Origin: Blasia pusilla
Taxonomy: Eukaryota
Direction: 5' to 3'
DNA: 64,000 nt
Assembly (NCBI GenBank): GCA_050084515.1
Contig: CM114271.1
Span: 30,070,001 to 30,134,000, forward strand
Every line of letters begins with the position of its first letter. Position 1 is the stretch's first letter. The notes beneath the pieces are model-generated. The model did no database searches and was not told the DNA's origin. It saw only the letters and a list, made by a program, of their open reading frames with translations. Below, piece by piece: positions 2,701 through 31,531 of the stretch. Position numbers and translations under genes: made by a program.

Positions 2701-2751
2701 AGGTAACTAGTAAACTAATTGAGACTACCTAGAATACACTAATAGTGCATA

Positions 2752-2910
2752 CTAGCATAATGCCCGTGCTATGCAGGCCTGAAAACCACCCGTAAGGAAA
2801 GACATCTCATTAATTTAGTTCGTCTTGTTCATTTAACTTTTTTATTACACATGTCAACATCGGAGGAAGGGTCCTCAAAACCCATCCTCTTTTAAATACA
2901 TATAGATAGA
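2752..2910 (-). mobile_element. Miniature non-autonomous Helitron-like element
   Basis: Minus strand starts TCTATCTATATGTA (2910) and ends with a GCCTGCATAGCACGGGC hairpin plus CTAG (2752). It sits between A and T with no TSD. Confidence 0.6.
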
Positions 2911-4198: not shown

Positions 4199-4944
4199 AT
4201 GTCGAAGGAGACTAAAGTTAAGCTGAAGTCCTCCGACGATGAGATGTTTGAAGTGGACGAGGCGGTGGCCTATGAGTCGCAGACGGTGAAGAATATGATC
4301 GAGGACACAGGAACCGATAATCCGATTCCTTTGCCTAATGTTTCTAGCAAGATCTTGTCGAAGGTCATCGAGTACTGCAAGTACCACGTAGATACTCAAA
4401 AAAGTAGCGATGATAAGCCTGCCACTCCCGAGGACGAAATCAAGGCTTGGGACGCGGACTTCGTGAAAGTTGATCAGGCGACTCTCTTCGACCTGATTTT
4501 GGTGAGTCCAGAAACTTTCAATTATGAACGCATCTGGATAGAACCCTGACGTGGTTGCTCGACTAGTCCTCGGGGAGGCCTCCTTCTCGTCCGTCTCCTC
4601 ATATCTGAGACGTCTATCCTGGGAGGGTTCCATGCCCGCTAGTGGTGAATAGAAATTGTGTCGGTTTTCTTCCATGGGAACCCTCTGCCTTCTCCCTGAT
4701 TTCACTGCGTTTTGTAATTTCGTTCTGCGTCTTGACATGGTAGCGTCTTCTCGGTTGGTTGTGTTTGTAGGCCGCGAATTACCTGAACATCAAAAACCTT
4801 CTGGATTTGACCTGCCAAACCGTTGCCGACATGATCAAGGGTAAAACTCCCGAGGAGATTCGAAAGACATTCAACATAAAGAATGATTTCACACCAGAGG
4901 AAGAGGAAGAAGTCAGGCGGGAAAACCAGTGGGCTTTTGAGTAA
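4199..4944 (+). CDS. SKP1: SKP1/ASK1-like SCF E3 ligase adaptor, copy A (158 aa)
   Basis: Exons 4199-4501 and 4771-4944 with a GT-AG intron at 4502-4770. Protein [19 protein letters not shown]...[21 protein letters not shown]...[63 protein letters not shown]. An in-frame upstream ATG at 4190 could add MAG. Confidence 0.97.
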
Positions 4945-7267: not shown

Positions 7268-10200
7268 CTAAGCACTCTCGAATCCAAAAACTCTGAAAAC
7301 ACCTGCAGAGCAGAAATATTTCCACAAGGAGGTAAGTTTGATGGGAAACTTCTTGTCACTCCAGCAATAGAATCAAACTTGAAATCAGGTGCAGTGTCTG
7401 CAAGCGGATAACAACTCCTTTTGAGTACTTCAATTGGAAATACAACTTGTGTACCTCTGCTGGGCCTTGGCTTGAGAGCCTTCACCATCAAAACTGACGT
7501 CCATAAGAGGAAACTCTAAACAAACTGTATTCTTAACGCAAATTATTGATGTGCCTCAACCAAATACACTCAGAAAATAATCAGGTCTTACCTTCATCGG
7601 CTTGGTACTTGTTTTTGTCATCGGCAGCAAATGCAAGCAGATTGAACTTTGGATTCCACTCGACACTGTTCATGGCTGCCCAACAAGGGATTTGATAGAC
7701 TGATCTTCCACTCTCCACCTCTGACTACAACCGAAACATTTTGCTCATTCCTCAGTGGCATGATACCTAAGATTGCAAAGTAGATGGCTAGTAGATGTTC
7801 AAAGAACTTGGTGAAGTAAATGCACAGCTGAAAAATATGGTACAAGTTGACCAATCCTGACACCTACTCACAGCTATTTCACAGCATCTGTTAAAATTGT
7901 TTTACAGGATAGGCTTGAATACTCACTATGTCGATGAAAAGATCTTCACTGGCAGAAGCAATATACTGCCCATTATAGTTGAAGCTAATAGTTCGTACCG
8001 GCCACCTGCACATTCAAGTTAAGGAAAATGCTCACTTGAGCCTCTGCCAAAGCTGAGAAATTGCTAGGCTAAATAGCAACCACCCTTTCACTAAAACATA
8101 ACTGCTAAATTTCAATAAATTCCCACCCCTCTGGTCTGGGGTCTGGCAGTTCCCCTGTTAAGACAGTTTTTTCCTGGTGAGTCCAGAGTGTAGTGTGGAG
8201 CCAAAAATGGGCCTGGAACGATTGTGTTATTCATTGAGGGATGTGCAAAAAGGAGACCAGGAAATTGCACAAATCGAAGGGAGAATCCACCAATCAAGCA
8301 AGACCACTGCAAGCATAAATATTCTGGTAAGCAGCGTCACCAACTAGTGACAAAATATAAGTGTCAAAAGTATTGCTCACTCAAGCTTTGTGAAAGTCCG
8401 AGCACACAGCATTTCTGAAACATCCCAAAGACTGACAAGCGCATCTGCACTCCCAACTGCAAAGTACCTGTGCCATAAAATTCTACGCACATGTTAGCTA
8501 CAATCTAGACCTCAACAGTGAACAAAAAAGTGACTCAAAAATCAGATCAGTGCCTCAAAAAAGGCACATATATATAAATATAAATATAAATATATAATTC
8601 TTGCTAACTAAGCATGCAAAATCCTCTGAATATCCCAAAAGTAAGCACTTGTGAACGCACCTTCCAGAGGGATCAATAGCAATGCAGTAGCAACCTGCTG
8701 TGTGCGCAACAAGGGTATGAAGGGTTTGTAGTGATGGATATGCTAGCACTTCAACAGTACCTGCAAAAAAGCCACCATAATTGTGAGAACAATTAGAGTT
8801 GTAATGGTGCAGGCAATTTTAAGTTTAGGCTGCTGGCACTAGGTATCCTAGAATGTTTGATGACTTATATAAAGGATGGGTGATTCATTTCACAATACAC
8901 TTCAAACCGACCTAAATCCCATGAATTGCACATTACAGGCTTCAGTGATGCCGTTACCATTTCCAGTTGTCAGAAAGAAAAGCTCTCCTGTTGTGTTCCA
9001 AGCTATTTCATTAACCTGCACAACCATCGTCGAGAAAGAAGCCCATCTCTAAGACTTTGAACAGTTCTCCTCATACGAACTTGCATGACTTCCATTTCTG
9101 TGCTAGATAAGTCAAAGCTTGCACTGCATTGAACTTCACAATTCTGGTTACAAGCTGAGTTTCTCCAATGTAGGTGGAAGTGCATTCTGGCTTGTAACTT
9201 CTAGGTTTTGAATAACCTCTCAAGCTTTCGTACCTCATACCCAAACTTGCGCTTGTGAATGGCCTTGAACTTCCGAACATCAATGATAGTTAGTTCATCA
9301 TCCTGCACGCAAAGGCCACAGGTAGGTAAGTATAATCAAGAATTTTCCAGAGTCAAAATCTGTTAACCACACCATATTCTCAACGTCACTGGAAGCGAGT
9401 ACTCATGATGAATTCATTGCAGATGATATTTGAGAAATGAGGTGGAAATCTAGGCAAGAGCTCACCCTGTTCCCAACTGCTACATGATTCCCATCTGGTT
9501 TGAATGTGATATTGATGTTTTCGCCACTTAACTCCACTTGCTGGGAGCACTTTCCAGCTGCATTGAGATTTCTGTCAGTGACACAACAAAATGGCTGGAG
9601 ACAGCTACTGCAACTGGACATGTAACGATGCATTTCTATTCTTTACTACAGCTAGTGCCTTATGATTTAGGTTGTTATATTAGGAATGTCATTATTCATC
9701 GCTCAAGTGCTCTAGGAAATAGCTAGGAGAAGGTCTTTAGGATCCTTTTCCGGGTCAGTGAATGAATGACTTGTCATGTGTTTTTTAGCCTTTTGACCAT
9801 TTGGGTCCCACGGGCTTGATCTATTTACCATTTACCATTCACTCTCACTGACCTTCTACTAGCAAGGCTGGAAGCAATGATAACTTTCAGCATAATACAG
9901 CAGAAGCCACTTATTCTCAAGAAGGCATAGGTCTTACATACATAGGCAAAGAGAATCCAGGAATGTACTTTGAACTACTCACTACGGGCATCCCAGAGAC
10001 GGACAGTTTTGTCCCCTGAGGCAGTGGCAAGCAAGTCTGCATGTTTGGGGTCCCAACAAAGCTGGTCAACGCTGTCTGTATGCCCTTTCAGTTCCATATC
10101 CTTCGCTTTACTCTGTAGTTCCATTACGGGCAAACAGGTGGACACTGTCACTCCCAACTCTTGCCTACTAAACGTCAGATTGTATGACTTTTGACAGGAG

Positions 10201-11689: not shown

Positions 11690-12430
11690 CCGCGGCTCCT
11701 CATTAGAACGATGTCGATTGTGGTCGGCACATTGTAAGTGTGGATCACTTGGTGTGCACTTAGGAAAGAGAATATTGTCGTCCACGATACTATGCTAGAT
11801 ATCATGTATAGTGTTTCTTGTGTGAGTGACTTCACGTGCAAAGAGAAAGGCACTACCCCATATTGGATCTTTGCATGACAAGAGAGACTCAGGAGGTGGT
11901 GGTGGTAGGTGGAGGTTGTAGTGACCGATCCTACATGAGGCTGGTTGTGCGAGAGCCCAAGTGGTGAGACAAGGGAGATTACCATAAGGAGTGGGGGCGG
12001 CGAAGAAGACCCAACTCTATAATCAACTTTATGACGGACATTGATTCATCCCCCTAGCCATAGAGATATATGGGGTATGGGGAAGAGGTTTGACTTGTTC
12101 CTTACCATTTGTACCCATAAATGGTTGTTCATTAACTATTGCAATTTTTTTATTGTAGGCAACATGTCTCCATAGCTTTGTAGCATGCCCAAGCCAATGG
12201 GCTTTTGTGGCGGGCTCAGGCTGTGGGAGATGCCAACACTAGAGGTCCACTTGGTGGTAGTCACGTCTGTCTAGGTGTTGTTGACATTGTCTCAACTCTT
12301 GGTGAGTTTAGCCGACAGGGGCATGCCCCCTATTCTTTTTCTGGGCCAGTTGTGGCCTTCACGTACTAGACTCTTTAAGTCCCCCCCCACCTTTTTGGTA
12401 TTCCGGATGGGTTTTCCATTACCTGCTTTC
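11690..12430 (+). mobile_element. 3' fragment of an RLE-endonuclease (CRE/NeSL/R2-superclade-like) non-LTR retrotransposon
   Basis: Broken frames give CDC...DHLVC...IVVHDTMLD (CCHC-like), VEVVVTDPT, AAKKTQLY...FIPLAIEIYG and QHVSIAL...QANGLL, which are the typical RLE C-terminal motifs in order. Confidence 0.6.
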
Positions 12431-13993
12431 TATTGAGGCCTCCATTCTTCTCTTATTTAAGCAAAACCTCCTTATTGTCATTTTTTATTACTATACTCAA
12501 GTCTATAAGAACACTAGTGCAATCCGGTATGCTTTATATCCCATAATCGATCCTCATGCGCCATGTTAAATCTTATTAGTCCAGAAGGTGAGCGATCCTA
12601 TTCCTTGAAGTGTCAAGAGGAGGAGAATCAAAATGAAAGGGCACTCTCCAAAATTAATATAGATTACGGTCCAAATTTTCCGAATACTTTTTAAATTGAT
12701 TCAATGAATTTGTTCACTCTCCATTTTTTTATTATAGATGTTATTAATGTGCCATAATATTTGTAAGCGTGAGTAAGGGAGAACCTTCTACCTACGACAG
12801 TTGTTGATGCAAGGTGAATTCTCTAATAATTTATCCTGTTCAGTATATAATCACTATATACACTGGCAATAAATAAACTTTGGTAGGAAGGTTGTATGTA
12901 GAGATGTCAGGAGTGATCCTTTGGTCTCCTTTGGTGACATGCATGCACAAGATACCATTGAGGAGCTTTCTTGAAACCTTCTTAGAGAATTCATGGGGGG
13001 TTCTTGATTTTTCTGGAACTTGGTAAGCATCTTGAGGCAAACTATGTGGACAAGTTACCTTCTTGGATCCGAAGCTCATCTTTCCATACTTGAATCCAAG
13101 TATAGGTTGGGGCACACTACCACATTGGGGGTCAGTTTGGCTTGATTTTCTTTTAGAGTAATTAGTGGCAACCTTGGCAACCTATCCGATTTACATTGTG
13201 TGATCCCTTTATGTGATGATGTGATATTTTATGTTAGTATATATGACAATAATGTAAGTTGTGTTGTGTATGATAAATTTCTTTTTTATTTGAATAGTGA
13301 AAAAATGATGATTGGAAAATTTTAAATCTTTCGATGTTTTTAATCTCTACGGTATAATTCTTTCACTATAATATATATCATATATTCAAACCCGGTCATA
13401 TGCCCTCCTATTCAACAAAATTGTCATTTGTTTTAGAGTTCAGATTTCATGAATATTTTTGGATGCATCAATATGGATAAGGTGGTGCCCATGCTTGTTT
13501 TACAAGTCATTTTTATGGTTTGGACCACTACTTTGTAAGTCTACTATGAGACTTTTTGCAAGTGAACATCTTATGAGTCTTTTGCATGTAAGTTCGCAAG
13601 ACCTTTGCAAGTCCTTAGAATTGCAATCAACTTGCAAAGGACTCACAAGACTAATTACTTGTACTTGTGAAGTACTTGCATATAAGTTGTGAATGGGATA
13701 TGTAGATTATTCGGGTCCAAAATCATACATGACTCATAAGAAACTCGTAAAGCACTTGCAAAAATGGAAATAGTTAAATAGTCCTCCCCCCTGCCCTTCA
13801 CGCGCTTCCATAACACCTCAATATCCACCTTTTTTTCTACCTTTGTTTGGGATCTAATAAGTATTGTGCACCATTTCTAGATGTGAATTATGGTGAAGCA
13901 CTCTTAGCTTTTTATTCTCTTTGAGTGATTTGGATTTTGGAATGGACTTGGGACGGAGCAGAGCAATCCTATCTATGATCTTGGGATCAAGGG

Positions 13994-14882
13994 TGTCACA
14001 TCTGAGTAGCCGATAGGCCAAGATCTATCGTGGATAGGGTATAGGAGCCAGCCGACTATCTTGAGTGTAACTTTGTCCCACGATGTCAGATGAGGTTGAG
14101 GATAGGTCCGTTGTGTCAGGAACTTTGTTTCTAACAACTTTCCTGTTGAGGTCTTTCACAAACGGGTGACTTGTTGAACAGGTCACCTGCCCCTGCTAAC
14201 ATGTGCGGGCAGGTTACCAGGAGGATAGCTATTTTTAGGGGAAGAGCCTTTTGGCTCTTCTCAATCCTATATAAGGGAGGAAAATGGTTTTCCCAAGCCA
14301 TCTTTCTCATGTTGGGCCGTTGGAGCACCTCTCTTGTATGTGTGTGAGATAGGACTAGGGTGCTAACGTCCGCATTCCATGAGAAAGATCTTTGATATGA
14401 GGAAAAATAAATAGTTATAAAAACGGCACATCTAGACTAAAAATCCACTCCTCAATCTACATCGGCATATCGAGCCTCGTCCACCCTTCGCTATCAAGGA
14501 ATCCAGACGCTAGCACCCTAATCCTATCTCACACACATACAAGAGAGGTGCTTTAACGGCCCAACATGAGAAATATGGCTTGGGAAAACCATCTTCCTCC
14601 CTTATATATGGTTGGGAAGAGCCAAAAGGCTCTTCCCCTAAAAATAGGTATCCTCATGATAACCTACACGCACAGGTTAGCAGGGACGAGTGACCTAGTC
14701 AATAAGCCATCCGGCTATGAAAGACCTCAACAAAGAAGTTGATAGAAACGACGTTCCTGACACAAAGGACCTATCCTCAACCTCATCCGACGCCGTGGGA
14801 CAAAGTTACATTCAAGATAGTCCATTGGCTCCTACGCCCTATCCACGATAGATTTCGGTCTATCGGCTACTCAGATGTGACA
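13994..14882. repeat. Long inverted repeat (about 385-bp arms, about 120-bp spacer) made of two LTR-like segments
   Basis: Left arm 13994-~14378 starts TGTCACATCTGAGTAGCCGATAG. Right arm ~14498-14882 ends CTATCGGCTACTCAGATGTGACA. The arms are collinear with scattered mismatches and contain a TATATAAGGGAGG TATA-like motif. Confidence 0.92.
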
Positions 14883-15102
14883 GTTGTCGTGCGTATACAT
14901 ATCGCTACACAACATACATCGTTGGTCACATCTACACCACACAACACCGATCGATCTTCCCCACACACAGATAGATCCACACATGTACAAAAATCAACTC
15001 ATACATATACATGGAGATCACACAACCGCCCCCCTAGCTGGCACTTGGATGCCCCAAACTCCAGATAGAAAATATCACATCTCTCGGACATGACCTACTA
15101 CC

Positions 15103-15240
15103 CTATACACATCTCAGACACATCGATGGTCCCGTGGGAACTACATCAAGAGGGGCGGGGGGGGGGGAGGGTGGGGTGGGGTGGGGTTCAGACATGACAT
15201 ATGCCATCCTAAAAAACAACCATCACATCACAACATACAC
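15103..15240 (-). pseudogene. PHD finger at the C-terminus of the retroelement integrase
   Basis: Reads RCML*/CDGCFLGWHMSCLNP..PLDVVPTGPSMCLRCV*, matching the PHD pattern CxxC...CDxCxxxWHxxCLxPPLxxVPxGxWxCxxC. It has an internal deletion and a G-rich expansion at 15152-15186. Confidence 0.8.
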
Positions 15241-15299
15241 CTCAAGCCTGCAGGTACCACTGCCAAGCTCGGATCCAATGTCGCGTCTATGTTTGGAAG

Positions 15300-17990
15300 A
15301 TGACATGGCGCACAACTGCGCACATGATCCTTCCAAACCATACCATCATGTCCCTCCAACATGAGGACTCCGGTCGATAATATCTCGCCCATACGTAGGA
15401 TCGTGCGCCCTGCAGTGATATCTAGCGTCGTGGGTGCCGCCTGCTGTAAATACACGTAATCTCCGTGATGAAACCTCATAATCCTTGGACAATAACCTAC
15501 TCCATGAATGGTCATATACCTCAATGTATCTCTATGCTGAGCAATAGCTAAGTTCTCAAAGGCCATAGGCATAACTCTACAAAAAATCTCCACCCTCTGA
15601 GAACACGCTTGTATCCACACATCTGGATCATTAAGTCTAACATCTCCGCCATGTCACGTCAAATAGCTACAGGTAAATCTGGCTCTCTCCCAAAGAGCAA
15701 AAAGTACGGTGAAAATGACGCCAAGGATGCCTGCGGATTACAACGATAACCCGTAGCCAACCATGGCAATTGTAGGTTCCACTCCCTCAACTGTCCCCGC
15801 TGCAAGCCATACTTGCGCAATCCTCTCTTTCACCGTATGTACTACTCTCTCTGCCAACCCATCCACCTCAGGATGATCTCTGGACGTGGCGCGGTGATCT
15901 ATCAGCGCCTGATCACACAAGGCTAAAACTCGCCCCTGAACTCGGTACCCTAGTCAATCAACACCTCCGCCGGTGCACCAAAGTGAATCAGCACACAATC
16001 TAGAAACGCATAAGCTGTTCCCTCGCTCGCCTTGTCCGGTAGTGCCACCAACTCTATCCACTTGGAGAAATGCTCCACCATGACCAATACGTACCTATGA
16101 TGACGCCCCGTCAATGGCAAAGGTCCCGCAAAGTCTAAACTCCACTGATAATCTTAGCCCATAATCGGCAAAGGATGTAACTGCAGAGTGGGAGCATTGA
16201 AGGATGCTACACTCTGTCACATATCATACATCCAACCACAAACTGCTGTATCCCAGTATGCATGCCGCGCCACCAATACTGAACCTGGAGTAAGCTGTCA
16301 GTACGCTTTACTTCAAAATGCCCCAACTCCTCATGGGCATGTCGCACTATACGTGCTTGCTAGGAAGGATGAGGTACCACTCGTATCCTACCATCTCCCC
16401 ATACTTGCAGAATGTGAGTCCCCTCCCACATGAACCTCCAGGCTCTCTGTAGGATCCGATCTAGCTCCCTAGCACTCACTGTGCTCGCTATGAGGCTAGT
16501 GCGCAAGAACTCCACAACCTCCACGTCGTCATGGATATCACGATCACTTGTCGCCTCCTCAATGACCTTCGGATCCAAAGACTCATCATCCAACCCCACC
16601 ATTGGAGTCATCACCTGTGGCTGACCTACTATAGTCAACCAACAAAGACAGGCAGATGCATGCCAACCGGGCACCATCTCCTCATCACTCTCTCCGTGCC
16701 ATCGAGCTCTTATGTCATCTCTCTGACTCGGACATGGGTTATGACTCAACCCATCCGCATCTTGGTTTAGCCGACCTGGCCTATGAACCACCTCAAACTC
16801 ATACTCTTGTAGTAATAGAGCCCACTTGGAAAGCTTTCATGTAAGCTTGTCGGACTCCATCAACCACCTCAACGGTTGATGATGAGTGATAAGTGTGAAA
16901 GGGTTGCCGAATAAATAGTACCTGAAATGTGCCACAGCCCACACTGCACCCAAGCACTCTCCCTCGTAGGAGCTGTACTTTGCCTCTCCAATGTTGTTCG
17001 ATTGGCTCGCGTAAGCCACAACGAACCTCCTCTCCTCGTCATCCCTCTGAGTAAGCATTGCTCCTAGACCCAACATGCTACAATCCGTATGTAATTGGAA
17101 TGGACGACCCCTAACCGGTCTCTGTAAAATGGGTGAGGACGTCAACCTATCCTTGAGCTCTTGAAATGCTCGCTCGTGATCACCTCCCCACAACCAAACC
17201 TGATCAAGTCCCGTCAACAAGGTCAAAGACTTTGCGATCGCACTAAAACCCTTGACACACCGTAGATAGAAGTTTGCCAATCCAAGAAACGCTTGGTCTC
17301 GACTCACATCTGTAGGGCATGGAATCTTCATAATAGCCTCCACCTTTGTCTACTGAACATCTAACCCACTCGGATATACGGTGTATCCCAAGTACTCAAT
17401 CTGCTCTTGAAAGAATCTGCACTTGCCTGGATGTAACTTCAGTCCGTGTAACTGCAATCGCCGAAACACCTCCTCCAGGTGTCGCTCATGCTCCTCAACC
17501 GTGGAACTGAAGATAAGAATATCATCTATGTAACATTGTACAAAATCCAAGCCATCCAAAATCCTATCCATCACTCTCTAAAACTCCAAAGGCGCGTTCT
17601 TCAACCCAAATGGCAAGAACCGCCACTAATACAAGCAATCTCTCCCGAAACGATCTATCCCCCATAATTTTGTCTTCTCCCTGTCCTCCAATCTGATAGG
17701 AAGCTGATGATAGCCAACATGGAGATCTAAAGTACTGGAGATCTTTGCATGCCCTAACGCATCAAAGATCTCCTCGGGACTAGGCATGGCGTACTGATCT
17801 GACCTCCTCTGTCGGTTTAGAGGACGATAATCTCCACACATCCGCCTATCCATCCAATTGCCATACATATCCTTCTTCGTCGGTGACTATGGCGGATACA
17901 TACTCCCCATGTGATAACTCCACAAGTCCTGCCTCCAATAAGTCCTGACTCATGCTCTGAATCAAGGCTCGCTCCATATCAGAATACCTG
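15300..17990 (-). pseudogene. Gypsy pol remnants: reverse transcriptase, RNase H and integrase
   Basis: RRMCGDYRPLN, STLDLHVGYHQ, VQCYIDDILIFS, LHPGKCRFFQEQIEYLG; FQLHTDCSMLGLGAMLTQ, YSSYEGECLGAVWAV; DFAGPLP, VMVEHFSKWIELVAL, DHPEVDGLAERVV. The RT-RH-INT order indicates Ty3/gypsy. Confidence 0.95.
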
Positions 17991-18889
17991 TAGGATCGAT
18001 GAAAGATTGACGTATCACTAGCCAACTCAATCCGTATCCCGGAACCCTTCAGCGTACCCAAATCTCTCATACTGAAGGCAAAACAACTCATATGCCCTCT
18101 CAAAAACCTATGAACTTGTTGTCGCTCTCCTCTTATCAACTTGAGACATATCACAGGCTCCCAAGTCTCCATCGTGACCTCACTCGGAGAGGACGCAACC
18201 TCTGGCTTTGGTTGCTATGTAGCAACTCTAGCCACTCCGCAACAGCCACTCCACTCTGGCCTCCTATCTCATGCTCCACATCCAAAAATGAACATGTGCT
18301 GCTCTGGCCGCCTTCGCACTCTCCGCTCGAACGACGTCCCATGAAGTCCATGGGTGCCTATCTCTCTTCGTCCCGCCCCCAGCCAATGCCTCTACAGACC
18401 CTCTAGGCAATGGTCCAACTGGTGGATGTGACGGCATGGATGACACTCGCATCTGTCTCGGCTCAGCCATACCTAAGGTCGTCGGAAGATAGGAAAACCA
18501 TTATCCAACTCAATTCGAATATGTGGACCCTTCAATGTACCCAAGTTGTGCATACTATATGCAAAATAATCCCTGAATCTCCACAAGAACTACAACATCT
18601 GTCTTGTCAACCTAGGACCAATCATCGACTCCCACGTCTCTGGAGCAGCAACATGCGCTCCCAAATCATACACCAACTCTCTAGACACTCTACTATGTCT
18701 TGCATCAGCAAAATGAACTCTCATCTCTCTGTGCTCTCGTGACATGTCCCATGAAGTCCATGGATGCCTTTCCATCACCATCGCGCCCCCAGCCAGTGTC
18801 TCACCCATCTCGATAGACGTTGCACTCCAAAGTGGACGTTATGTTACACACGCCTCTTGCATCCATCTCTGCCCAGCCAAACCAAGACT

Positions 18890-19380
18890 GCACACCCAAG
18901 TAAGACAGTTCAGTCCATGGCATGACCCGATACCTATCTACGGGATGCCTCTTCCATCATAGGCATGTCCGTCGTACCTGTAGAGAACCCCATAGCTCAC
19001 TCTCGCTCGTCGATGTTGGGGTCCACCAATGTACTTGCATGCTCATCCCATATCATGATTTTCTCCAAGGAGGAAGAATGACCCTGCCATGGCCACCCTG
19101 CCACCACCAAGTGTATCGGACCAACTATATCAAGATCTGGCGCCCCCAACAACGAAATGTCGGCCGAAAATACATGCTGATATCCCCTAACTGCAAAAAG
19201 TGGCAATAATTGAGGATATTGTTGGACTAGTCTCGACACATGATGTAATGAGACCCTACGTGCAGTCTCATCTCTCTCAACATACAAGTGTTGTTGTACT
19301 CGTTCGTATTCCGGCCTGCAACATTGTTGCCAACGATGTACTAATCCCTCCAAAGAGATCTAGTATACGTACATCCTCCT
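18890..19380 (-). pseudogene. DNMT3-like C5 cytosine methyltransferase domain inside gypsy pol (copy 1; motifs V-VIII deleted)
   Basis: Motif I VRILDLFGGISTSL, motif II YVERDETAR, motif III DISLL, motif IV GPIHLVVAGWPWQGHS (catalytic C to W), then motifs IX-X ERE*AMGFSTGTTDMPMMEEASRR*VSG. Collinear with DNMT3 (IRVLSLFDGIATG...GPFDLVIGGSPCNDLS...EMERVFGFPVHYTD...RQRLLG). Confidence 0.85.
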
Positions 19381-20359
19381 TGGGATAGTGCCACACAATC
19401 GGTGTGGTGTCCAAGGGTGTCAATATATCCACTCCTAGAGCACGTGGTGACTCTATCCTATCTCGCTCTAGAGCATAGGCTCAGCTCCACGCCTGCCTCA
19501 CGAGCTTGTCTATCGTTGGTGTAGTTGGCAACTCCGCCACTCTAGCCGCTGCTGCATGCCAAATCTCTGTGGCTCTTGTCCCAATCACATGCTCCAAGGG
19601 TACCTCTGCCACATCTCATGTGCGTCTATGAGAATGAGTTTGGTTCTTCTAGTCTCAACACTAGAAGAACCAAACTCATTGCTCTCTCAAAGCGTCATCG
19701 CCAACCAAAAAACATCAGCTTGTCGACCTCCACATGTCAACAAATCTCTCGCCGTGAATAGTGGGACGCTACATAAAGCCATCGCCATCTCTCGTAACTA
19801 GGCTGTGTCGAATGTTGCATAGGCCTGGTAGACGTACTCGCCTCACCCGCTCCTCTAACTGCATCGGCATCTGCAACAACAATGCTCCTCAAAGGCCATC
19901 TAGGGACCATCAATGGGGTCCGAAGAGCCTCTGAAAATGTAAAAGACTGGGGAAGTCTAGCCTGCCTGCCAGCTTCTCCCCTCTAGGGATCCAACTCCAC
20001 ATTGGATCCTCGTTGCTCAGAAGCTCTCACCGCGCCTCTCCTAACCATTGCATTTGCATCCACCTGTGTAGTGTTGCACAAAAATCCCATACCTCTTAGA
20101 TCTCCCGCTGTATGCAGGGCCTTAGAAGATCCAGAAGTCGACGCGCCCCCTGCACTTGATGTAGATGCATGCTGGGTCGTCATAGCCTGAAGGCGTTGCT
20201 CCAACTGAGCAATCCTTGCCAAAGCTGCCTTTGATGCAAGTGTTGCACTTGCTCTGGCAGGTGGTGGGGTCTTGCCTCCACCACGTCCTCGAACTCCTAC
20301 ACCTCGTCATCTGCCACCTCTAGGTCCTTCACCTCCCTGTGAGCGCAGCTCGGGGTGGA

Positions 20360-21420
20360 GCTCGAAACATCTCTCATGTGTGTGCCCATATCTCTGGCAA
20401 TGATCACACTAAGGTAAGGGTGGCCTCCCCTGGGCTGCCTCATATACAGTTGATGGTGCTCCCTACATTCCACTTTGTTGTCTATAATCTTGCTAACGAT
20501 ATGATCCTCCACACGTCCAACAAGAAATACTTGAGCCCTGTTGCCCAACGTATGACTGAACTCGTCATGGTCCAAGCTCCCAATATCCTCCCTTGGTCCT
20601 ATGACTCTATCTCAAGTAGTGTGTTGCGGAAGTGATGGAGATGCTGTCACTCGTGTTGTCTCCCTCGAAGATGATGCGCCTGTCGTCAAAACTATCTCCT
20701 CAAGTATGTTGAGCTCAATCCGCTCTTACAACAAAAATACACATTTGAGAGTAGGGAAACCAACATGTAAGAGACTTGCATCTCCCACTCTCTTCCGCAA
20801 CTTGCGGTGTAGCATCGCATACCAGAATTGGACCGCTTGCGCCTCCATCGCATCCTAAGTCGCTATAATCAACTGTCGGAGCTGTGCAAAGGCCTCTCGA
20901 AGACTCTCTCGCTCTTTTCCGAGACTCATGAATCAACTTCAGCTTGTCGGTCCTCACCCCCTGAAAGTTCCTCCCCGACTCTCGAAAGAACTCAATCAAC
21001 GGGTTGAACGCGACTGATCACACTCGTAAGACTTGGGTCGACAACTCCTCCAAGTGTCTCCTCCGTGTGGTTAGTGGGTGCTACTGTAGCCACCACATCA
21101 TAAAACGCACGCCCTCTAAGGGACACATATCCTAGAGACCAAAATAGTCTCTACGCCTCGATCTCCGTCTCATGGAGAATCCAAAACTTGTGATAATCAT
21201 CCATGGGAGGGCCCTCCAGATGTTGAAAAAGTCCCTTCCATGCCATAAAGGGGTTGGAAATCTGTTGGTTTTGCATCCTATGTGCATCGCACCAACTATC
21301 GAACTCCTCCATAAAATCATCCAACTTGATGGTTTCCACCATGCTTGAGAACCGTCGGGGTCCCCTCGTGGATCCATAAATATGGCGATCATCCATGTCC
21401 CACAACAACGGTGTGGCAAC
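20360..21420 (-). pseudogene. Gypsy gag remnant with CCHC zinc knuckle
   Basis: IKLDDFMEEFDSWCD...AWKGLFQHLEGPPMDDY, and CDHCQRYGHTHERC (CX2CX4HX4C) at about 20408-20367. Confidence 0.75.
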
Positions 21421-22130
21421 ATTGCAACACTCCGTGGCCTCTAGGGTAACTGAGAATCCGCTAACGTTACCTCTGGAGTAACTACAACTCGCGACTGAGG
21501 TGGTTCCTCGTGTGGAAACCCTTGATACCTAGCCCCATTGCGTGTAAATCCTCCTCCATTTCTACCACTACCACGCTCCCCAATACTCTGTGGATGCGCC
21601 GTGGTGAAACTTGCAAACTACTATGACTCACTTTCGAGCCACTAGCTCTGCACTAGACAATGCCCAAACTGTGGACATGCCCCCACTTATCTCACTTGAG
21701 GTCAACACGCGGCAAATAGACTGCACACTAAGTCACTCCCGACTAGTGTGATATACATCCATCCCACCAAGTTCTCTACAATAGTCGCGGTAGTGCCGTG
21801 ACTCACCAACGTACTAATCCACAATGTATGTCACCTGAGAATCACCCCTCAAACATCTCCCAAAGTGAGTAAATTCCTCTGTGTGCAACAACTAGCCATC
21901 ACTTCCTTGTGGGTGTGTTGGTAACAAAACATGCAAAAGAACTCTCCAGTTAAGCACACTCTGGAGGAATTGAAGTGGGATGGGTGATCTGGAAGTTATG
22001 TTGAATTGGATCAGCAACGGATTGCCAAGTCCTCACGCCCACCAGCAAGCTGGGGCCTTCAACGCCTCTCACACCCACTCGCACCTTCGACACCTTTGCT
22101 GCCTCAAAGAAAAGGGCGACAGATTGAACC

Positions 22131-23430
22131 CAATTGGAAACTGGGTTCCGATTGCTGCGCCGCTTTGCCAACTCGCACGGAACTTGGACGTCACAAAAGT
22201 TCCTTCACCTATAAGAGTGTCAAATCAGAACTTCAATTCTGAATGCTCTTGGCTCACCCCTTCCTTCCTCACTTCACAGAAGAATGACAGAATTGGAATT
22301 GAAGTTCCAATTGCTCACTCCTCCCTCTCTGCTTCACACGCCGCGTCAAGCCGCACCTGATAGAAAGAGTCGCGCCCACTTGAACAAGCCGTGGAATAGG
22401 AACCAAAATTTTGATTCTTCTCCTTTCTTTCGTTGGCTTGAAGAAGAGCTGCGCCTTGCTTGAGAATCCATGGAATGGGAACTAAATTTTGGATTCTTCT
22501 CTCCTTCCTCTGAACGCCATGCTGAAATAGAGAGTATTGCTAACCTCACTTCTTGGGTCTGTGCCAAAGGGATCAGAACTTCAGTTCGATTGCCCTCACT
22601 ATCCTCTCCACCTCCATGTAGAGAGAACCCAACACAAGTGAGGAGCAGAATGGGAACTAGAGTTCCAATTGCCTCCTTCCTATCCTCTCCACCTTTATGT
22701 AGAGAAGACCCACAAGTGAGGAGCATAATGGGAATTGAAGTTCCAATTGCCTCCTCACTTCACTTCCCTACGCCGCTGCACTATGCCACACCGTAGTAGT
22801 CAACTGTAGTTGAAACGCTCAATTGTTCTCCAATTGAGACAGAATAGGAACTTGAGTTTCAAATCCTCCTTGCTTCCTTGTCACTCCCACTGCGCCAATC
22901 TCTGCTATGCCGTCAAGATGACCACCATGCACTTGAACCCCGCCTCGGCTCAACTGTGCTCAAAATGGAACTTGAGTTCCAAATCCCTTTTGCAGCTCCT
23001 TGTCACCCTTGCCGTGCCGTGCGGTGCCGCGCCTTTCATATGACTCGGCCCTTGCTGCTGGATCAGAATTTTAGTTTCGATTCCCACTTCGCCACTCTGC
23101 TCCGAACTGCCTCTTGGGAGGATTCTCTTGAATCAGAACTTAAGTTCTCATGCCTCCCTCAACTCCACCAACTTTGTGGATAGAAGTCCTAGTTATGCTC
23201 TAGTAACTACTCCAAACTAGTGGCGCTAGCTCCTCCACACTACTGGCACCCCAAACCTTTCCAACCTCTAATAGAGGAAAAGTTGACCACGTAACCTCTT
23301 CCTTGGTTGAACCACATTCACCAACAAGGGATATCGAAACTTCAGTTCCGATTGAATGAAGAGCTCTCCTCCTCCTCACTCCTTCTCACTTTCCAAACAA
23401 GGGCTATCAGCACTTAAGTTCTGATGCCTT
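22131..23430. repeat. Array of about 14 imperfect 22-bp palindromes (consensus AATnRGAACTTNAGTTCYnATT) separated by mostly unique spacers
   Basis: Motif cores at about 22136, 22227, 22295, 22399, 22478, 22575, 22653, 22731, 22847, 22967, 23065, 23135, 23336 and 23409, plus a partial at 21966. Period is about 70-120 bp. One spacer is tandemly duplicated (~22590-22750). Confidence 0.8.
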
Positions 23431-26400
23431 ACACAACATCTCAAATATTGCTCTCCCATCCTTTCCACACCGGTGGTCTGCTCATCTCAAGGAATCTACA
23501 TTGCTATGGGAAATATTTTGGAATCTTTCTCAAATCAGCTCTGTCTCTGGTCCAGTTTTCACAACTGGACTCAACTTTTTGCGAGCTTTCCAATGACAAA
23601 TTCACATCTCATAAAATCTTGGACAATCTAATACCATTGTGCCCTCCTTACATTTGCTTCTTGTTTGATTTTCCTCATGCCCAAAAATCATTCGATTTGG
23701 TCCAAAATCAAGCATACCTCACTCAAAATCAGCAACGAAGTGCCCACACACTTGCTGACTTGCCCACTCTCAATCAGTTCACGATTAACAATGATTTCTT
23801 CACCACAATTGTCTCGGGAACTCTATCCTTACAATTTGATCCTTAATTGCTCCACTCTTGTGCAACTCCACTAGGCTTGAGAAGTCCCCCCCTCTTCAAA
23901 TTCTGTCAAATTTGTCACATTGCACACATTTCTCAATTTAGAACATCTCACTTCGATTTCAAGAATTCTTTTGCCCCATATCTTCCCGCATTGTCAGGAT
24001 ACACTAGCTTGCAATTCCTGCAAACCCCATAGCACCACAATTGTGTTGTACACCATAAATTGAGTCTGAATTTCTCTTCTATTGAGAACCACTGTGCATC
24101 TCCTTAGGATATAAAGTTGAATACGCACTGTAAACTCTGATGAAATCTGCAATCAACCGTGCTTCATCCAAACAGCCATATGCACACTCATGATTCAGAT
24201 ACACCCTGGTGTAACAGCAAGAGGAAGTATACACAAGGATTCCCAAAATTTATGATCTCCTTATTGATCACTCCTAGCCCACTCTTTAAGAGAGAATCCA
24301 TGCTCAATACATGCAAGTCGCGTTGTATCACGGATCCCAACAAGGGTCTGCAATCCTAAGGAGATGAGCTCCAAATAAGCCTCATCTCTTGGACACCTCC
24401 ATGGGTAACATGTACACAAAGGTCACCTCCCTCTTAGCAGGCCACTACCCAATTGTAGTACATCCATACTAGCTCCCTAACAACTACACATGTGGTCCCC
24501 TCATGAGACCAACTACCAACTAACCCACGACCTTATAGGTCCAAGTGGAGCCATACATGGTTGGGAAGGTCAACCTCTCCAAGGTTGCCATTCCTCATGA
24601 AGGGAAGGATGACATATAATAGGTCACCTCCTAAGAGCAGGTCACATATGACCTCTCAAAATAGGGAAGTACAAAATCCCTCTAAGGCCTCGATATTATC
24701 TCGCCCTATGCCTCATCTGCCATGACAATGTCTTTGAGATTTGTATGAAGAAATCATGCATGTTTAGCACTTTTCTATATGATATCAAACCAATAGGAGA
24801 ACATCCATTGAAATTCTTGGTGTTTCATAAGAGAAGAGAGGCAAGAGAAGGCATAAATATAGTTTGATAGACTAAATGAGAGAGCACCGGAGTGAGCTTG
24901 AAGCCTAGGTCAAACTAGAGGTCTTTGAATAGGTGGTCTAAAGATGGATGAGGTGGTGAATATGCACATGGAGGAGATAGAGGCCTACCACCTAAAGGGA
25001 TTCAAGGAGACCTCGATTGTAAGGTTGGTATGGTTGCACAGATAGAGCAATTACAACAACTAGCATCCCTTATGGCATTAAGAGCTGCACATGCCGAGGT
25101 TTTCCAACTAGCCAACACATTACATGGGCATGGACATGTTATGTTTACCTCATATTTAGAGGTAGTCATGAAGGCTGTGATGGATGTGCCCGTAGATCTT
25201 CGGCTTAGACGTCTACCACTAGTTCATGCAATTTGCAACCTCTAGATTGTAGGAGATGCACACTAGAACCACTATAGAAAATATCATGGTTTCAAAATTC
25301 ACATAGAATATTGCTATTGGAAAACCAACTTAAAGTACATATTTTCCATTTGGTTAGATTAAGAGGTAGAGTTTATTGCCCACAATATGTCTTGCTAGAT
25401 CTAAGAGTGAAAACCTTAATGTTAGGGAAGGTGATTTTAATAGTTTTGGTCCTAACTCGTGTTAATTCTTAGTATTTTCAATTTCATATTCACATATTAT
25501 GAGATGGTGCCAATACAACATTGTTTACCATCTAACATCAGATAATGGCAAGGTTTCGATCAAAGTATTTGACAAATGAGTTATTAGTACAGGATAAGAT
25601 GTCATGCGCAGACACATCACTACACAACATACGTCGTTGTCATGCATATATAACATACACTAAACACATCACATCCATTTATACACCATTATACGAGAAG
25701 GATACATAATTGTTACCCTTATATCATACTCTAATGGACTCACACTAGGATGGAAGTGCGTCGGAGTCTCACAAGTGAGACATGAGTTGCAAAAGAGAGA
25801 TGCAAGCCTTCATGGGTATCTTAGATGATGTCCTAGGGGAGGTTGACCAAATGTCAAGTGGGCCTTATGAAAAGGTCAAGTCCCATGAGAGTTGGGTACA
25901 CAGGGGAATACGACCTTATTTTGAACTTTTTTGAGCGTTTATATATTTTAGATCATAACAACTATATCCAAGAGGAAGTTGGGATTAAAGAGATAGCATC
26001 AAAAAGATTGTGAGAATCCAATTCTAAGGCACTAAAAAATATGGACAAACGTATGAGTAGAGGTCTAGAAACTATCCCAAATTTTTGGAATGCTAGTTGG
26101 GTTGGGGTGGATTTAGGGTTTAGGAGGAGCAAACCAAGTGGACTTCCTTAGATATAGGGATGGGGTGGACATCTCTAGAATTCTATATAAGGGAAGAGTC
26201 TCCAAGGGTTTTAGGAATCTAAACTCCACCTTGGAAACCATGGGAATGAACCAAGAACACGGGATGGATTGAGATATTAGCATCGGGATTTTCAACCCAT
26301 GCCAAGTCCAAGTGGATCCATTCTGGATACCAACCTTGGACCTTAACCCATGACTCAGATATTCAGTCTCGATTAGAGCTCCTTTGAGGTCTATCGGGCA

Positions 26401-26599
26401 ATTGGGACTACTAGGCGCGTTAGCACCGTTTGATGTACCTAGACTAATAAGGAAATATATCCCAAGTATCAAATGACTTGCCTGTGTTGGGATCATATAA
26501 TGACCTAATCCCTCACTCCACTTGGATTAGGTCATTATATGATCTCTATCTAGATCAATTCAGAGTACATGATGACCTAAGACCCATGGTTCCACAAAA

Positions 26600-28000
26600 A
26601 TGAATAAGTCCGCCCTTAAGACAAACATGGACGGACAAGTTTGGACATGTCCAAGCATATGGATTGCAAAATATGGGGCCCACACTTATAGTTCATGGTA
26701 GAAGGCAATGCAAGGCTAGAGGGGCAATAATGTAGGAAGAAATGAGAAAGTGCGGGTCACAAAGGCAAGTTGGGAGGGAGATGAGACGAAAGATGGGAAA
26801 GAAGGGGGAGATGGGGCCCACATGGACAAGTCCTTCTATAGGACATACGTAAGTCCATGAACATCGACATATTTGCAGATATAGACTTTGTCTATAAGCA
26901 ACCTTGCCTAAGACCCAAACTCGAGAGATGCAAGGTTGGTTGACCCAAGTCATGGGTGATTTGGGTATAGATGAGTAATCAGAGTATGACTTGCTAAACA
27001 CAAGCTTCTTCGACATAAAGTATTGATGTTCAAGGGAGTAGGTGAAAAATATGTGGTATAAGAGCCAATCTTTGGTGAGATTGAACTCATTGCTGTCAGT
27101 CTTGATCGTACGTTTGGGAGAACATAAGGTTGCAATTGAGGAGAGATACGAGGAAAGGATTTGAATAGAAAAAGGCTTGAGGATGGCAACGGTGGGTGGA
27201 GCTTTGCCAAAACCTCGACTCAAGTAATGAAAACCAAGAGACAAACCATTACCTAGCTAGGAGCCAAAGATGGAGACTATGGTTCCAAATACTCTAACAA
27301 GCTTTAGGCATCAATATGTCCCAGATGCAAATGCTTCAATGGGCCCTACCGCTCCAAGTTAAAATAACACGACACTCTATGTTCAAATAATGGACCTCAT
27401 AAAGCTCATGTCAGCACAAATAACCCCATAGAGTTAGCAGATTGATGAGTTAGAGACAGATTGCGCATTAATTTATGGAAAGAAACCTTGTAAGATAAAA
27501 TTGCCCACTTCATTCGTAGGAATGGGCCGTGCACATAAGGTTAAAGAGCTCTTTATCAAACTTGAACTTTAATTTGAAGCATAAAGGATAGAGGAGAAGG
27601 ACAAGATTAATGTGGTAGTCATGTTTTTGAAGGATCATACCCTCTAATGGTGGATGACCTATCATAAGAAATATTTAAGCATTGTTTCCCCTTTGAATCT
27701 AAAGAGTTGGTTGGTGATTGATTTGCTCCGGATTTCAAGGCGTTGCAGACAAGTAGGATCCTTAAGCGCTTAAATACATGCTTTTAGCGCAATGTTAAAC
27801 TCAATAATATAGGTATGTTTGCAAACAAGATTCTCTTCTTTAATGAACTTAAACCTACTATTGGGAAAGGCCCTCTTACGAATTCTAGAGCCACTAAAGA
27901 CTTGCGTGGAACTATATCCACACAAGTGTGAGTTCTTCTATGATCAAGTTGAGTACTTTAGTTATACCATCATTGTTGAAAAAAAATGGATAAGTTTGTA
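26600..28000 (+). mobile_element. Decayed Ty3/gypsy fragment (LTR-like region, gag and short RT piece)
   Basis: About 27500-27660 translates KIKLPTSFVG...RIEEKDKINVVVMFLKDHTL*WW (Ty3 gag-like). About 27900-27965 gives LYPHKCEFFYDQVEYF (RT C-terminal motif). Confidence 0.6.
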
Positions 28001-28989: not shown

Positions 28990-30950
28990 AAAAATTAAAA
29001 TGTCTATAACTTTTGCATGAAATAATTTTTCATGGGTCAAGAACTATGGTAGCTTGTTACAACTAATGAGGCGAAGCCAAAAGATGAATAAATAGACTTG
29101 GAACATATTTGCAAGGCAAGTAATCTACTATATCTCAATAATAATGAGTTTGCCAATGATTTGTCACATTCAAGATGTTGATACATACTTATTAGAGAAG
29201 CTATTGTAGATATCTATAAAGTTCGGGAATCTTTAATTGAAACAATAATTGGACGAAGCCAAGAAAGGACCACAAAGCAATATCAAATATATTTTTGATT
29301 AGTTGAATAATATTAGAGAGACAACATAAGATTATGGTACAATTTTTTCACTCTTCAACGCCTTCAAAAAAATTATAAGTCTTTCAAGATCTCTATCTTT
29401 GTTGAAAATAAGTATCCAACCTTTCAAGAGTTAGTCTCAAAGTGAAGAAGTAAGGAGATACATCTAGTCGATAATAATAGGTCGTATAGTATAAAAGAAA
29501 ATCATCTATCTGTAGGTAACATATAAGACAAGAGAGATAGTGGTAGAATCTTTTGTGGTTGTGAAATATATCAAGAATATGGAGGAAGAGACACTTAACA
29601 TAGTTTCACTCAATTAACTTTGAAACAATACTAGAAAAAATCACAAGATGATGATAATGGTGGAAATCGTAGAGAATCCTTGGATCTTGCAATTACTATG
29701 CAAATTCTCTTCAAGAAGAAGAGAAAATTATAATATATAAGATTGAGGCAGAAAATCCTTGGATCTTGCAATTACTATGCAAATTCTCTTCAAGAAGAAG
29801 AGAAAATTATAATATATAAGATTGAGAGTCTTATAGTGACAAAACTATGTAGAGCAACAACATCCAAGTATAGTTTCAAGACCAACAATACTCACAAACT
29901 AAACATCTCTTAACTATGACTCATCACGTATGAACAATGGTAAAAAAAGACTCTATATGAGATTGATACATCAACTCAAATGACCTCACAAGCTAATGGT
30001 TTAATAGTATAAAGCCTATAAAAGATCCTCCAATAGTGTTCACATGACTTGATACACAATATCATATCATGTTTACCAATAAAGTTATTATAACATAAGA
30101 TAGTCTTTGTGCTTTTGGAAATATTCTCTATATTTCTACCTTTGCGAGAAATTTGATTTATGTATGAGAAATAGTAGAAGAGGGATATCACAAGAAGTTT
30201 AACACAAATAGTTATTTCAGTGAAACAATGAAGGACTAAATTACAATAGCAAAAAAATCAAGATCTTGTAGCATGTTCAAATTAGATGTTTTTATCGTAG
30301 AGATTGAAACATTAATGTCTAATTAAATTTATTAGCAAGTCATAGATCTTAAGATATGGTGTAAGAAAATTAGAGATATCAATCTTCAAATAGTATAGAG
30401 TATTTAATAATCTAATATAGTAATAGGAATTTCTAAATTGTCAAGTTATTCTAAGCTATAGGTATGCCCTACTTGCTCATTTGAAGAATAAATTGAATTT
30501 ATATTTGCAAAGCCAAGAAGAAGAACATCCAAGATATTTGAGTTTATTCATAGTGATCTATGGATAATATTACAACATAACCGTAGTGGTTTCCAATACT
30601 TTATTATTGATGAATTTTCTAGATATATATGGATATATTTGTTGAAAATCAAGTTAGAAGTAATTTTTGTGTTCCAAACATTCAAAAGTTTGGTAGAGAA
30701 ATAGACTAGGCAACACATTCTTAATTTATGTTAGAATGGAGGAAGAGAGTATCTCTCAACAACTTTCATTGACCACTTTGGTCAAAATGACATCCAATGA
30801 TATTTCATTTGCCATCACATTCCACAACAAAATGGAGTGGCTATGTGGAAAAATCAAGATTTTTTTTAAGGCAGTCCGTGTTATGTTTGATAAGAAGAAC
30901 ATACCTAGGGTATATTAGGCACATGCTATAGTATCCACAGTCTTCTTAAT
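28990..30950 (+). mobile_element. Decayed Ty1/copia element, 5' part (gag to integrase)
   Basis: About 30545-30860 gives IHSDLW, FIIDEFSRYIWIYLLK, NGGR/EYLS and IPQQNGVA, which are copia integrase motifs. Confidence 0.75.
29675..29826 (+). repeat. Direct duplication of 73 bp (period 79)
   Basis: AATCCTTGGATCTTGCAATTACTATGC...TATAAGATTGAG is identical at 29675-29747 and 29754-29826. Confidence 0.95.
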
Positions 30951-30999
30951 TTTCACCTCTTTTAGGATAGATCGGTGAGATCTAGTAGAGCACCTTCGT

Positions 31000-31531
31000 G
31001 AGTAGTGGAGGACATGCTCCGTAGGTCAAGGATGAGGTGTTGAGGCCTTAAGAAACCTGAGTTTCGGCTAATTTGGAGCCATATTGAGAAACTTACTATT
31101 TTAGGTAAGTGCCATTTTTACTATATGGTCAACTTTCTATTTATGTTAAGTGGCCTTTGACCTCCTACATCAGGTCAAGAGCCAAGGAGGTGACTTGGGA
31201 GCATAGGTTACCATGGAGAGAGCTTGGGAGAGGGAGGGGTATACATCAAGGAGAGAGAGCTTGAGAGCTCATTCTCTCTTTGTTGAACCTCTTGGCATGA
31301 GGCGGCGCAATCCAAGCCTCTCATTAAGAGAGTGGGTTTGGTTTGACATTGAAAGAGATATGTGAGAGTGCACACATGTTATAACTATGGTGTTGTGAGA
31401 GAAATTGGAGATATTTTGGTACTTCTTGTCTCGTTGTTTGGATGCCATGAATTAACATGGGATCGTGCCTGTTTGAGTGTGTGTTCGGTGATAGCAATGT
31501 ATGTTGTGTAGCGATGTGTATACGCACGACA
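31000..31531 (+). mobile_element. Partial LTR related to the termini of the DNMT-bearing gypsy family
   Basis: Ends ATGTATGTTGTGTAGCGATGTGTATACGCACGACA, a near-exact reverse complement of 14885-14920. Its upstream part weakly resembles the reverse complement of 24150-24700. Confidence 0.6.

Follow-up and report, generated by a model that had tools for sequence, protein, structure and literature searches.

The question raised by this locus, a window of 64,000 nucleotides (nt) of Blasia pusilla DNA (GenBank assembly GCA_050084515.1, contig CM114271.1, positions 30,070,001 to 30,134,000; positions below are those of the window), is whether a Ty3/gypsy retrotransposon of a land plant carries its own DNA methyltransferase. 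A first-pass annotation, made from the sequence alone, had placed such an element, encoding a DNMT3-like cytosine-C5 methyltransferase (MTase), at 14885-24727. Our analysis indicates with high confidence that the stretch holds a dead copy (copy 1) of a bryophyte-native Ty3/gypsy lineage and a second dead copy (copy 2) at the window's end, and that intact members of the lineage carry a DNMT3-like C5-MTase at the C-terminus of their first open reading frame (ORF1).

The retroelement backbone of copy 1 is readily recognized. A Pfam run on the three minus-strand frames of 14885-24727, with stops read as X, detected RVT_1 (E 3e-28), RT_RNaseH (4.8e-29), RT_RNaseH_2 (3.5e-28), Integrase_H2C2 (4.3e-11), and rve (5.5e-8). 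Reverse transcriptase (RT), RNase H, H2C2, and rve are consecutive on the minus strand from 18172 to 15186, which is the gypsy pol order; together with a CCHC-type gag, these domains bear out the Ty3/gypsy assignment. Mapping by tblastn with two Marchantia proteins, P0008 (gag-protease-DNMT) and P0007, and with both ORFs of a metagenome contig described below (L001), placed the decayed gypsy-type element at ~15.2-21.4 kb on the minus strand. Its gag (19830-21381) is broken over three frames and matches P0008 residues 4-505 at 42-57% identity; of its two CCHC knuckles at ~20.5-20.4 kb, the second, CDHCQRYGHTHERC, is intact in the minus-strand translation. RT and RNase H (16210-18172; L001 ORF2 residues 17-662) contain stops and frameshifts. 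They are followed by the integrase (15186-16207; L001 ORF2 residues 664-1014 of 1043), comprising the H2C2 zinc domain, the rve core, and, C-terminal on the integrase at ~15.2 kb, the remnant of a PHD finger, CDGCFLGWHMSCLNP; the PHD finger was confirmed in relatives. The best named relatives of the RNase H ORF (16840-17349) are from liverworts: Calypogeia fissa (75%), Riccia sorocarpa (79%, over 80% of the query), and Marchantia (66-67%). The host that fits best is a bryophyte, probably a liverwort.

The MTase segment of copy 1 lies between the CCHC knuckles and RT and matches Marchantia P0008 with a joint tblastn E of 3e-40. Its N-terminal part (19069-19510, minus strand) corresponds to P0008 residues 833-978 (54-68% identity) and has one frameshift and one stop. 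Motif I reads LDLFGGIS, YVERDE is also present, and motif IV reads AGWPWQGH, in which Trp replaces the catalytic Cys. A deletion junction at 19056-19069 follows, where ~158 residues (P0008 981-1138, motifs V-VIII) are gone. Beyond it, the C-terminal part of the domain and a linker occupy 18683-19056 (tblastn E 5e-10 and 8e-12): P0008 residues 1139-1193 map to 19056-18874 and contain motifs IX-X as PNIDERE*AMGF and RR*VSGHAMD (asterisks mark in-frame stops), and the linker contains RHPWTSWD. The motif order I, IV, IX, X is thus non-permuted, and the initial description of motifs I-IV and IX-X in canonical order between the gag knuckle and RT proved exact. A second deletion separates gag from the MTase: the tblastn gap at 19511-19829 spans ~320 nt, versus ~328 residues in relatives (P0008 505-833, including the protease). 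With protease, motifs V-VIII, and catalytic Cys lost, and with many stops and frameshifts, copy 1 is unable to encode an enzyme.

Copy 2 (62087-64000, plus strand) was recognized by PF00145, by tblastn, and by blastn to copy 1, and is scrambled. Its DNMT domain (63249-63996, plus strand) has several stops and runs past the window end; tblastn places an inverted protease piece at 63068-62613 (minus strand) and gag pieces at 62245-62087 (minus strand) and 62356-62481 (plus strand). Motif IV (ARWPCQGY) keeps the catalytic Cys, and motifs VI (ILENVPL) and VIII (AHRPWLWWTNL) are present. The 118-residue ORF at 63446-63802 (plus strand), which includes ARWPCQGY and ILENVPL, matches PF00145 at E 3.7e-6 (27.1 bits; cut-off 22). 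In a self-blastn comparison, 19077-19423 of copy 1 aligned with 63584-63252 of copy 2 in reverse orientation (67% DNA identity over 354 nt, E 1.9e-27). Copy 2 is likewise dead, so that the view of an element encoding its own MTase does not hold within the window: neither copy encodes a working enzyme.

Relatives elsewhere supply what the two fossils lack. The 118-residue ORF of copy 2 has 35 relatives at 52-74% identity; foremost among them, at 60-74%, are hypothetical proteins from Marchantia polymorpha, Calypogeia fissa, and Sphagnum troendelagicum. For the P0008 domain (residues 860-1200) there are 73 relatives, including 15 from Marchantia polymorpha as well as proteins of Calypogeia fissa and Sphagnum fallax, and a metagenome group at ~50% identity that is also gag-protease-DNMT. 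PF00145 scores in relatives are 27.7-51.1 bits; zf-CCHC was found in relative P0041, and the single protein P0007 combines PF00145 (residues 460-529), RVT_1 (833-919), and RT_RNaseH (997-1098). The named Marchantia, Calypogeia, and Sphagnum proteins thus confirm that the family is present in land plants; together with L001, copy 2, and read depth (below), they also confirm that the module is a family trait.

L001, a 9317-nt contig found by scanning metagenome contigs with P0050, is an intact relative. Its ORF1 (1006-5085) encodes a protease and a PF00145 domain (E 1.8e-13) and its ORF2 (5098-8229) RVT_1, RNase H, H2C2, rve, and PHD; the two ORFs are in one frame with a single TAG between them, in the context TAG CAG TTA (5083-5091). 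A second contig, L003, is built alike, with TAG CAA TCA at the same boundary (4661-4669), and copy 1 has TAG CAA CCA at its own ORF1/ORF2 boundary (18209-18217, minus strand). The pattern UAG-CAR-YYA, which we take to be a tobamovirus-type read-through signal, therefore stands at this boundary in all three elements examined. It is not enriched across the window (7 occurrences versus 4.4 expected; 13 of 100 shuffles reach 7), so only its boundary position carries weight. Intact relatives are accordingly organized as ORF1 with gag (CCHC), protease, and DNMT, the TAG in UAG-CAR-YYA, and ORF2 in the same frame with RT, RNase H, integrase, and PHD. The first-pass annotation had anticipated intact copies with protease, DNMT, RT, RNase H, integrase, and PHD in a single ORF: the domain order is right, and is seen intact in L001, but L001 and L003 each have two ORFs in one frame rather than one.

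Sequence and predicted structure agree on the class of the MTase. When P0008 was compared with PDB chains by phmmer, 25 of 27 matches were to DNMT3A/B/C (best E 1.7e-8); M.HaeIII (1e-3) and 4onj (2.6e-3), the latter presumably a plant DRM, also matched. The Calypogeia domain P0024 was modeled with AlphaFold from alignment A1 (pLDDT 88.6, predicted TM-score 0.88). In a Foldseek search of the PDB with this model, all 31 matches listed among the top 50 were DNMT3A/B/C, with E down to 3.4e-19; TM-scores by target were 0.72-0.77 for catalytic-domain chains, and identity to DNMT3A was ~22%. The family domain is thus nearest to DNMT3A/B/C in sequence and in predicted fold. In relatives, motifs I, IV, VI, VIII, IX, and X are all present in that order, which, with the PDB matches and the predicted fold, upholds the proposal of a DNMT3-like, non-permuted C5-MTase. 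Conservation was counted over the 163 domains that span 250 or more profile positions: 157 retain the catalytic Cys and 152 the motif VI Glu-Asn, and motif VIII is mostly H-R-x-R. Pfam detected no PWWP or ADD domain in 15 relatives; they have a PHD finger on the integrase instead.

The domain occurs at two sites in the polyprotein. One group among the 73 P0008-domain relatives (33-42% identity) had precomputed domains including integrase and PHD, and Pfam coordinates in all three members checked put the MTase between RNase H and integrase. We refer to this layout as type B, and to layouts with the order protease-DNMT or DNMT-RT as type A. The profile used to search for further representatives (1182 positions) took in integrase and PHD columns, so its total of 167,099 matches at E 0.001 represents gypsy integrases, not methyltransferases; the proteins that it returned, all of them from retroelements, were used only after re-screening with a DNMT-only hidden Markov model (HMM). 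This HMM found the domain in 192 of 240 collected proteins, and domain markers divided these into 131 with type-B orders, 41 with type-A orders, and 20 with the domain alone. Ten clusters were looked up, of which one was named, pol [Scenedesmus sp. PABB004], a type-B protein; a protein atlas returned generic PF00145 clusters only. Type-B domains differ in motif IV (e.g., P0054, P0061, P0080, P0096): 85 of 87 retain the catalytic Cys, and in 47 of 87 the residue before it is Glu in place of Pro, which is unusual for active C5-MTases.

A FastTree phylogeny was made with 42 type-A rows, 30 of the 87 type-B rows taken at random, seven unclassified rows, and two ORFs from the window. Both window copies fall inside a clade of 25 rows with support 100 that holds every named bryophyte row, and Marchantia, Sphagnum, and Calypogeia fall into one separate sub-clade each. 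A metagenome type-A group is sister to the bryophyte clade (support 95), and all 30 sampled type-B rows lie on one side of one branch (support 82). One tentative scenario, which we put forward as possible, is that a gypsy lineage of great age, characterized by a PHD-finger integrase, extends across green algae and bryophytes, that it has kept its DNMT3-like MTase under selection, and that the domain moved once between polyprotein sites, standing at the end of gag-protease in bryophytes and in the gap between RNase H and integrase in chlorophytes.

Read depth gives a view of the family within the Blasia genome. One DNA run and three RNA runs carrying the same species label were aligned to 12000-27000, accepting reads at least 80% alike and summing both directions; the resulting depths measure family abundance, not copy numbers. 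The quietest flank bins (13002-13502 and 25026-25526) had a DNA depth of ~1 and gag one of 76-135. The two DNMT bins reached 94 and 141, ~100-fold over single-copy depth, and the depth rose to 1105-2262 over 15507-18512 and ~1400 over the palindrome and non-coding 3' end (14004-15005). Since DNA read depth points to many relatives in the genome, the MTase part is not a one-off.

The depth drops near 18512, to 94, within one bin boundary. This step coincides with a doubling of the linker and the RT N-terminus in copy 1, whose two copies are 75-82% alike in DNA and include a direct repeat (18314-18392 / 18724-18802, 75%). The first and more diverged RT N-terminus (18476-18661, minus strand; P0007 residues 696-752, L001 ORF2 residues 6-76) ends the low-copy 5' half; the second post-DNMT linker with RHPWTSWD (18327-18482, minus strand; P0008 residues 1195-1245) begins the high-copy 3' half. 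Because the step and the doubled linker and RT start coincide, we favor, with moderate confidence, the explanation that copy 1 is a chimera, in which a low-copy gag-DNMT relic meets, at ~18.5 kb, a pol half that stems from a sister family of far greater abundance. The same data might be read as one uniformly old element, in which the 10- to 20-fold step at ~18.5 kb reflects stronger conservation of RT, RNase H, and integrase, and the doubled linker and RT start are an old internal tandem duplication. Pol is usually the best-conserved part of an element, reads as little as 80% alike were admitted and most overlap the stretch just in part, and the duplicated units stand head to tail, all of which fit a uniformly old element. 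We nevertheless consider it unlikely: depth over the non-coding 3' end and palindrome (14004-15005) is as high as over pol, the step falls inside one 500-nt bin exactly at the beginning of the duplicate, and identity to Marchantia is 47% for the first RT start as against 68% for the second.

RNA reads stem mostly from relatives of copy 1. Their first mates lie almost only on the plus strand. Values per bin are 35-80 across 15507-18011 and 1.3-6.2 in the DNMT bins, and most of gag has ~0. On the assumption of the usual stranded library type, the RNA comes from the minus strand, which is the sense strand of the element.

How intact members would use the module can be sketched from their layout. 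Leaky read-through of the TAG would yield a minority Gag-protease-DNMT-Pol product beside a main Gag-protease-DNMT product; being made with Gag, the MTase would therefore be carried along in the particle. Its likeliest use would be to methylate newly made cDNA of the element itself during integration or close to it, a proposal that we hold tentatively. The PHD finger of the integrase may read histone tails and so influence target choice. Alternatively, the DNMT module of intact members might have a target other than the element's own cDNA (host chromatin in trans, insertion sites, or RNA) or might be kept as a non-catalytic DNA-binding module. The Glu that precedes the catalytic Cys in 47 of 87 type-B domains is in keeping with this; so are two points in the available text of PMC5890265, namely that no Gypsy-DNMT3 domain has demonstrated activity and that the authors raise RNA methylation for DNMTs borne by LINEs (long interspersed nuclear elements). 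In the other direction, the catalytic Cys, the motif VI Glu-Asn, and the motif VIII Arg are kept almost throughout, the predicted fold matches DNA-bound DNMT3 structures, and DIRS-borne DNMT3 domains methylate CG in yeast (PMC5890265, as far as its available text goes), which makes the alternative doubtful in our judgment. For the family, catalysis is a plausible reading of this conservation, and self-methylation of cDNA is a conjecture.

Several points weigh against our reading of the locus. PF00145 had no match on copy 1, either in three whole frames or in 10 single ORF pieces (E up to 10), so the HMM check proposed with the first-pass annotation fails on copy 1 alone; PF00145 homology for the window is accepted because copy 2 scores and intact relatives agree. 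No long terminal repeat (LTR) pair was found for copy 1 by repeat search, self-blastn, or sensitive blastn of the 5' versus the 3' flank, the sole flank match being one of 64 nt (25597-25659 / 14882-14943, 78%); likewise, L001 and L003 have no terminal direct repeats within their contigs, possibly an assembly effect. The LTR status of the element is consequently judged from gene order only. The tRNA-Met primer motif, the only one tried, is absent inside the element at up to two mismatches. Given the missing LTR pair, the 5' end of copy 1 is undefined, and the limits 14885 and 24727 are putative. With regard to read depth, 73,555 of 103,523 reads are <90% alike and 78,475 lie only partly on the stretch, the step at ~18.5 kb could partly mirror better pol conservation rather than a chimera, and the strand given for the RNA presupposes a stranded library type. 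The tree is a FastTree tree only, of 81 domains, unrooted, with long branches flagged and without rows for host DNMT3, DRM, or Klebsormidium. Lastly, in the available text of PMC5890265, catalytic activity is demonstrated for no Gypsy-DNMT3 and the Klebsormidium domain was inconclusive in yeast.

A last alternative, that the MTase segment is a piece of a host DNMT3 picked up by or beside this single element and no part of the family, would fit the failure of PF00145 on copy 1 and the rearranged structure and depth profile of copy 1, which suggest two joined pieces, but is highly improbable in view of the recurrence of the gag-protease-DNMT-RT order in copy 2, 15 named Marchantia proteins, Calypogeia, Sphagnum, and the intact L001, the type-A orders in 41 of 240 collected proteins, and the ~100-fold depth on the DNMT bins.

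The closest known system is KnitGypsy-Dnmt3 of Klebsormidium nitens (de Mendoza et al. 2018, PMC5890265), described in the available text of that paper as having intron-less DNMT3-like domains in the gypsy Pol ORF, under purifying selection, and a DIRS-like repeat layout. Judged by this published description, it resembles the bryophyte family in having a gypsy backbone and an intron-less, non-permuted DNMT3-like domain with conserved catalytic residues in the coding region. It differs in host, a charophyte alga as against the bryophytes Marchantia, Calypogeia, and Sphagnum, and in placement, since the Klebsormidium domain is reported to be inserted 'into the Pol polyprotein ORF' whereas the bryophyte domain stands at the end of the gag-protease ORF1 before a putatively leaky TAG. 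The bryophyte integrase has a PHD finger, a term absent from the text of PMC5890265 available to us, and DIRS-like repeats are reported there for KnitGypsy-Dnmt3, whereas no terminal repeats were found for copy 1, L001, or L003. No Klebsormidium name appeared among the matches of the copy 2 ORF, the P0008 domain, or the RNase H ORF, or in the 10 clusters looked up.

Other comparisons set the family apart in different ways. SymbioDIRS-Dnmt3 of Symbiodinium likewise has a DNMT3-class domain in a retroelement polyprotein and two coexisting domain orders, but has a DIRS backbone with a tyrosine recombinase rather than a gypsy DDE integrase, dinoflagellate hosts, and CG methylation shown in yeast (PMC5890265, available text). 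Host DNMT3s (mammalian DNMT3A/B/C and MpDNMT3b) share the motifs ENV, AHR.R..W.N, and ERE..GF with the family; in contrast, the retroelement proteins are without detected PWWP or ADD domains and without introns, and are embedded in gag-pol. The MpDNMT3b host gene is Mp5g09290 (bioRxiv 10.1101/2021.02.12.428880, in the part available), distinct from the transposon-borne entries. Type-B elements (RT-RNase H-DNMT-integrase-PHD) share with type A a homologous DNMT domain (35-42% identity) and the integrase-PHD backbone, but in type B the domain follows RNase H and precedes integrase, whereas in type A it separates protease from RT, and many type-B domains have Glu-Cys in motif IV. Chromoviruses, whose integrase bears a chromodomain, and arthropod Copia elements that have captured an MBD (PMC6673714, available text) also carry a host-type chromatin reader or writer module aboard a retroelement; here the reader is a PHD finger, and the added enzyme class writes DNA methylation instead of reading it.

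Within the available portions of the literature, later texts by the group of de Mendoza et al. refer to 'streptophytes (Gypsy-DNMT3)' (bioRxiv 10.64898/2026.05.21.726589) and to DNMT3s embedded in retrotransposons (PMC12344493), Marchantia is unmentioned in PMC5890265, and the Marchantia methylome paper PMC5784723 gives five methyltransferases, none of them these proteins. Open full-text literature named no bryophyte or land-plant gypsy-DNMT3 and no Marchantia gene identifiers for it; supplements, of which those of PMC12344493 and PMC5890265 may list such elements, and subscription journals were outside this search. The family is a land-plant member of the Gypsy-DNMT3 kind, in print so far only from an alga, with an earlier listing possible.

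Published retrotransposons that carry the enzyme class used to silence them come from one charophyte alga and from a genus of dinoflagellates; the same kind now appears as a sizeable land-plant family that includes the model liverwort Marchantia. If members with uninterrupted ORFs in Marchantia or other model bryophytes are active, land-plant nuclei would contain a transposon-encoded de novo MTase beside host DNMT3, DRM, and CMT, and such an MTase would be absent from published inventories of plant methylation enzymes. The family offers a tractable system in which to ask whether these elements methylate their own cDNA, whether this helps or harms the element, and whether it confounds methyltransferase knock-out phenotypes. 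Since both copies are fossils, the window by itself is of modest weight. The details that merit attention are the placement at the end of ORF1 before a putatively leaky TAG, the PHD-finger integrase, and the chlorophyte sister group with the domain elsewhere.

At its 3' side, copy 1 has a non-coding end (13994-15185) that is repeated as highly as the pol part and merges into an 889-nt palindrome (13994-14882, arms 82% alike) abutting the 3' end of the element; the palindrome and 3' end are possibly LTR material in inverted pairing. A joint from 15026 back to 14403 (624 nt) is present in 208 DNA reads, a hint that other copies contain a tandem or LTR-like unit of 624 nt. A ~40-nt motif occurs three times in the window (14882-14924, 25597-25639, and, in reverse, 31497-31531). 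At 14885 and at 14921/14924, >1000 DNA reads each run on into different sequence, which makes the motif part of another abundant repeat. On the 5' side, the non-coding stretch that the first-pass annotation had given to the element (21382-24727, minus strand) has short internal repeats at 22.3-22.8 kb, no likeness to the 3' end, and a depth of 45-192. Farther upstream, 25308-25526 (plus strand, opposite to copy 1) weakly resembles the protease region of this family (31-40% identity) and is probably a fragment of another copy. The CpG observed/expected ratio is 0.47-0.69 in parts of the element versus 0.55 in the whole window, which gives no usable signal.

Elsewhere in the window, SKP1, which had been named as a neighbor of the element, is indeed present, as two paralogues (Skp1_POZ E 4e-29 each) with first exons at 4190-4546 (plus strand) and 48586-49071 (minus strand). 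Both genes lie within an inverted segmental duplication (3565-5414 / 47680-49538) whose parts are 73-81% alike. The region at 44.5-47.3 kb has several ORFs of 160-180 residues on both strands with no Pfam match at E 0.01. Dispersed repeats 70-73% alike occur at 30959-31359 / 51918-52392 and at 12143-12419 / 41065-41340, and a 77-nt tandem pair, 99% alike, lies at 29671-29826. Two protein kinase exons (PK_Tyr_Ser-Thr, E 1e-16 and 7e-20) are located at 55353-56499 on the plus strand.

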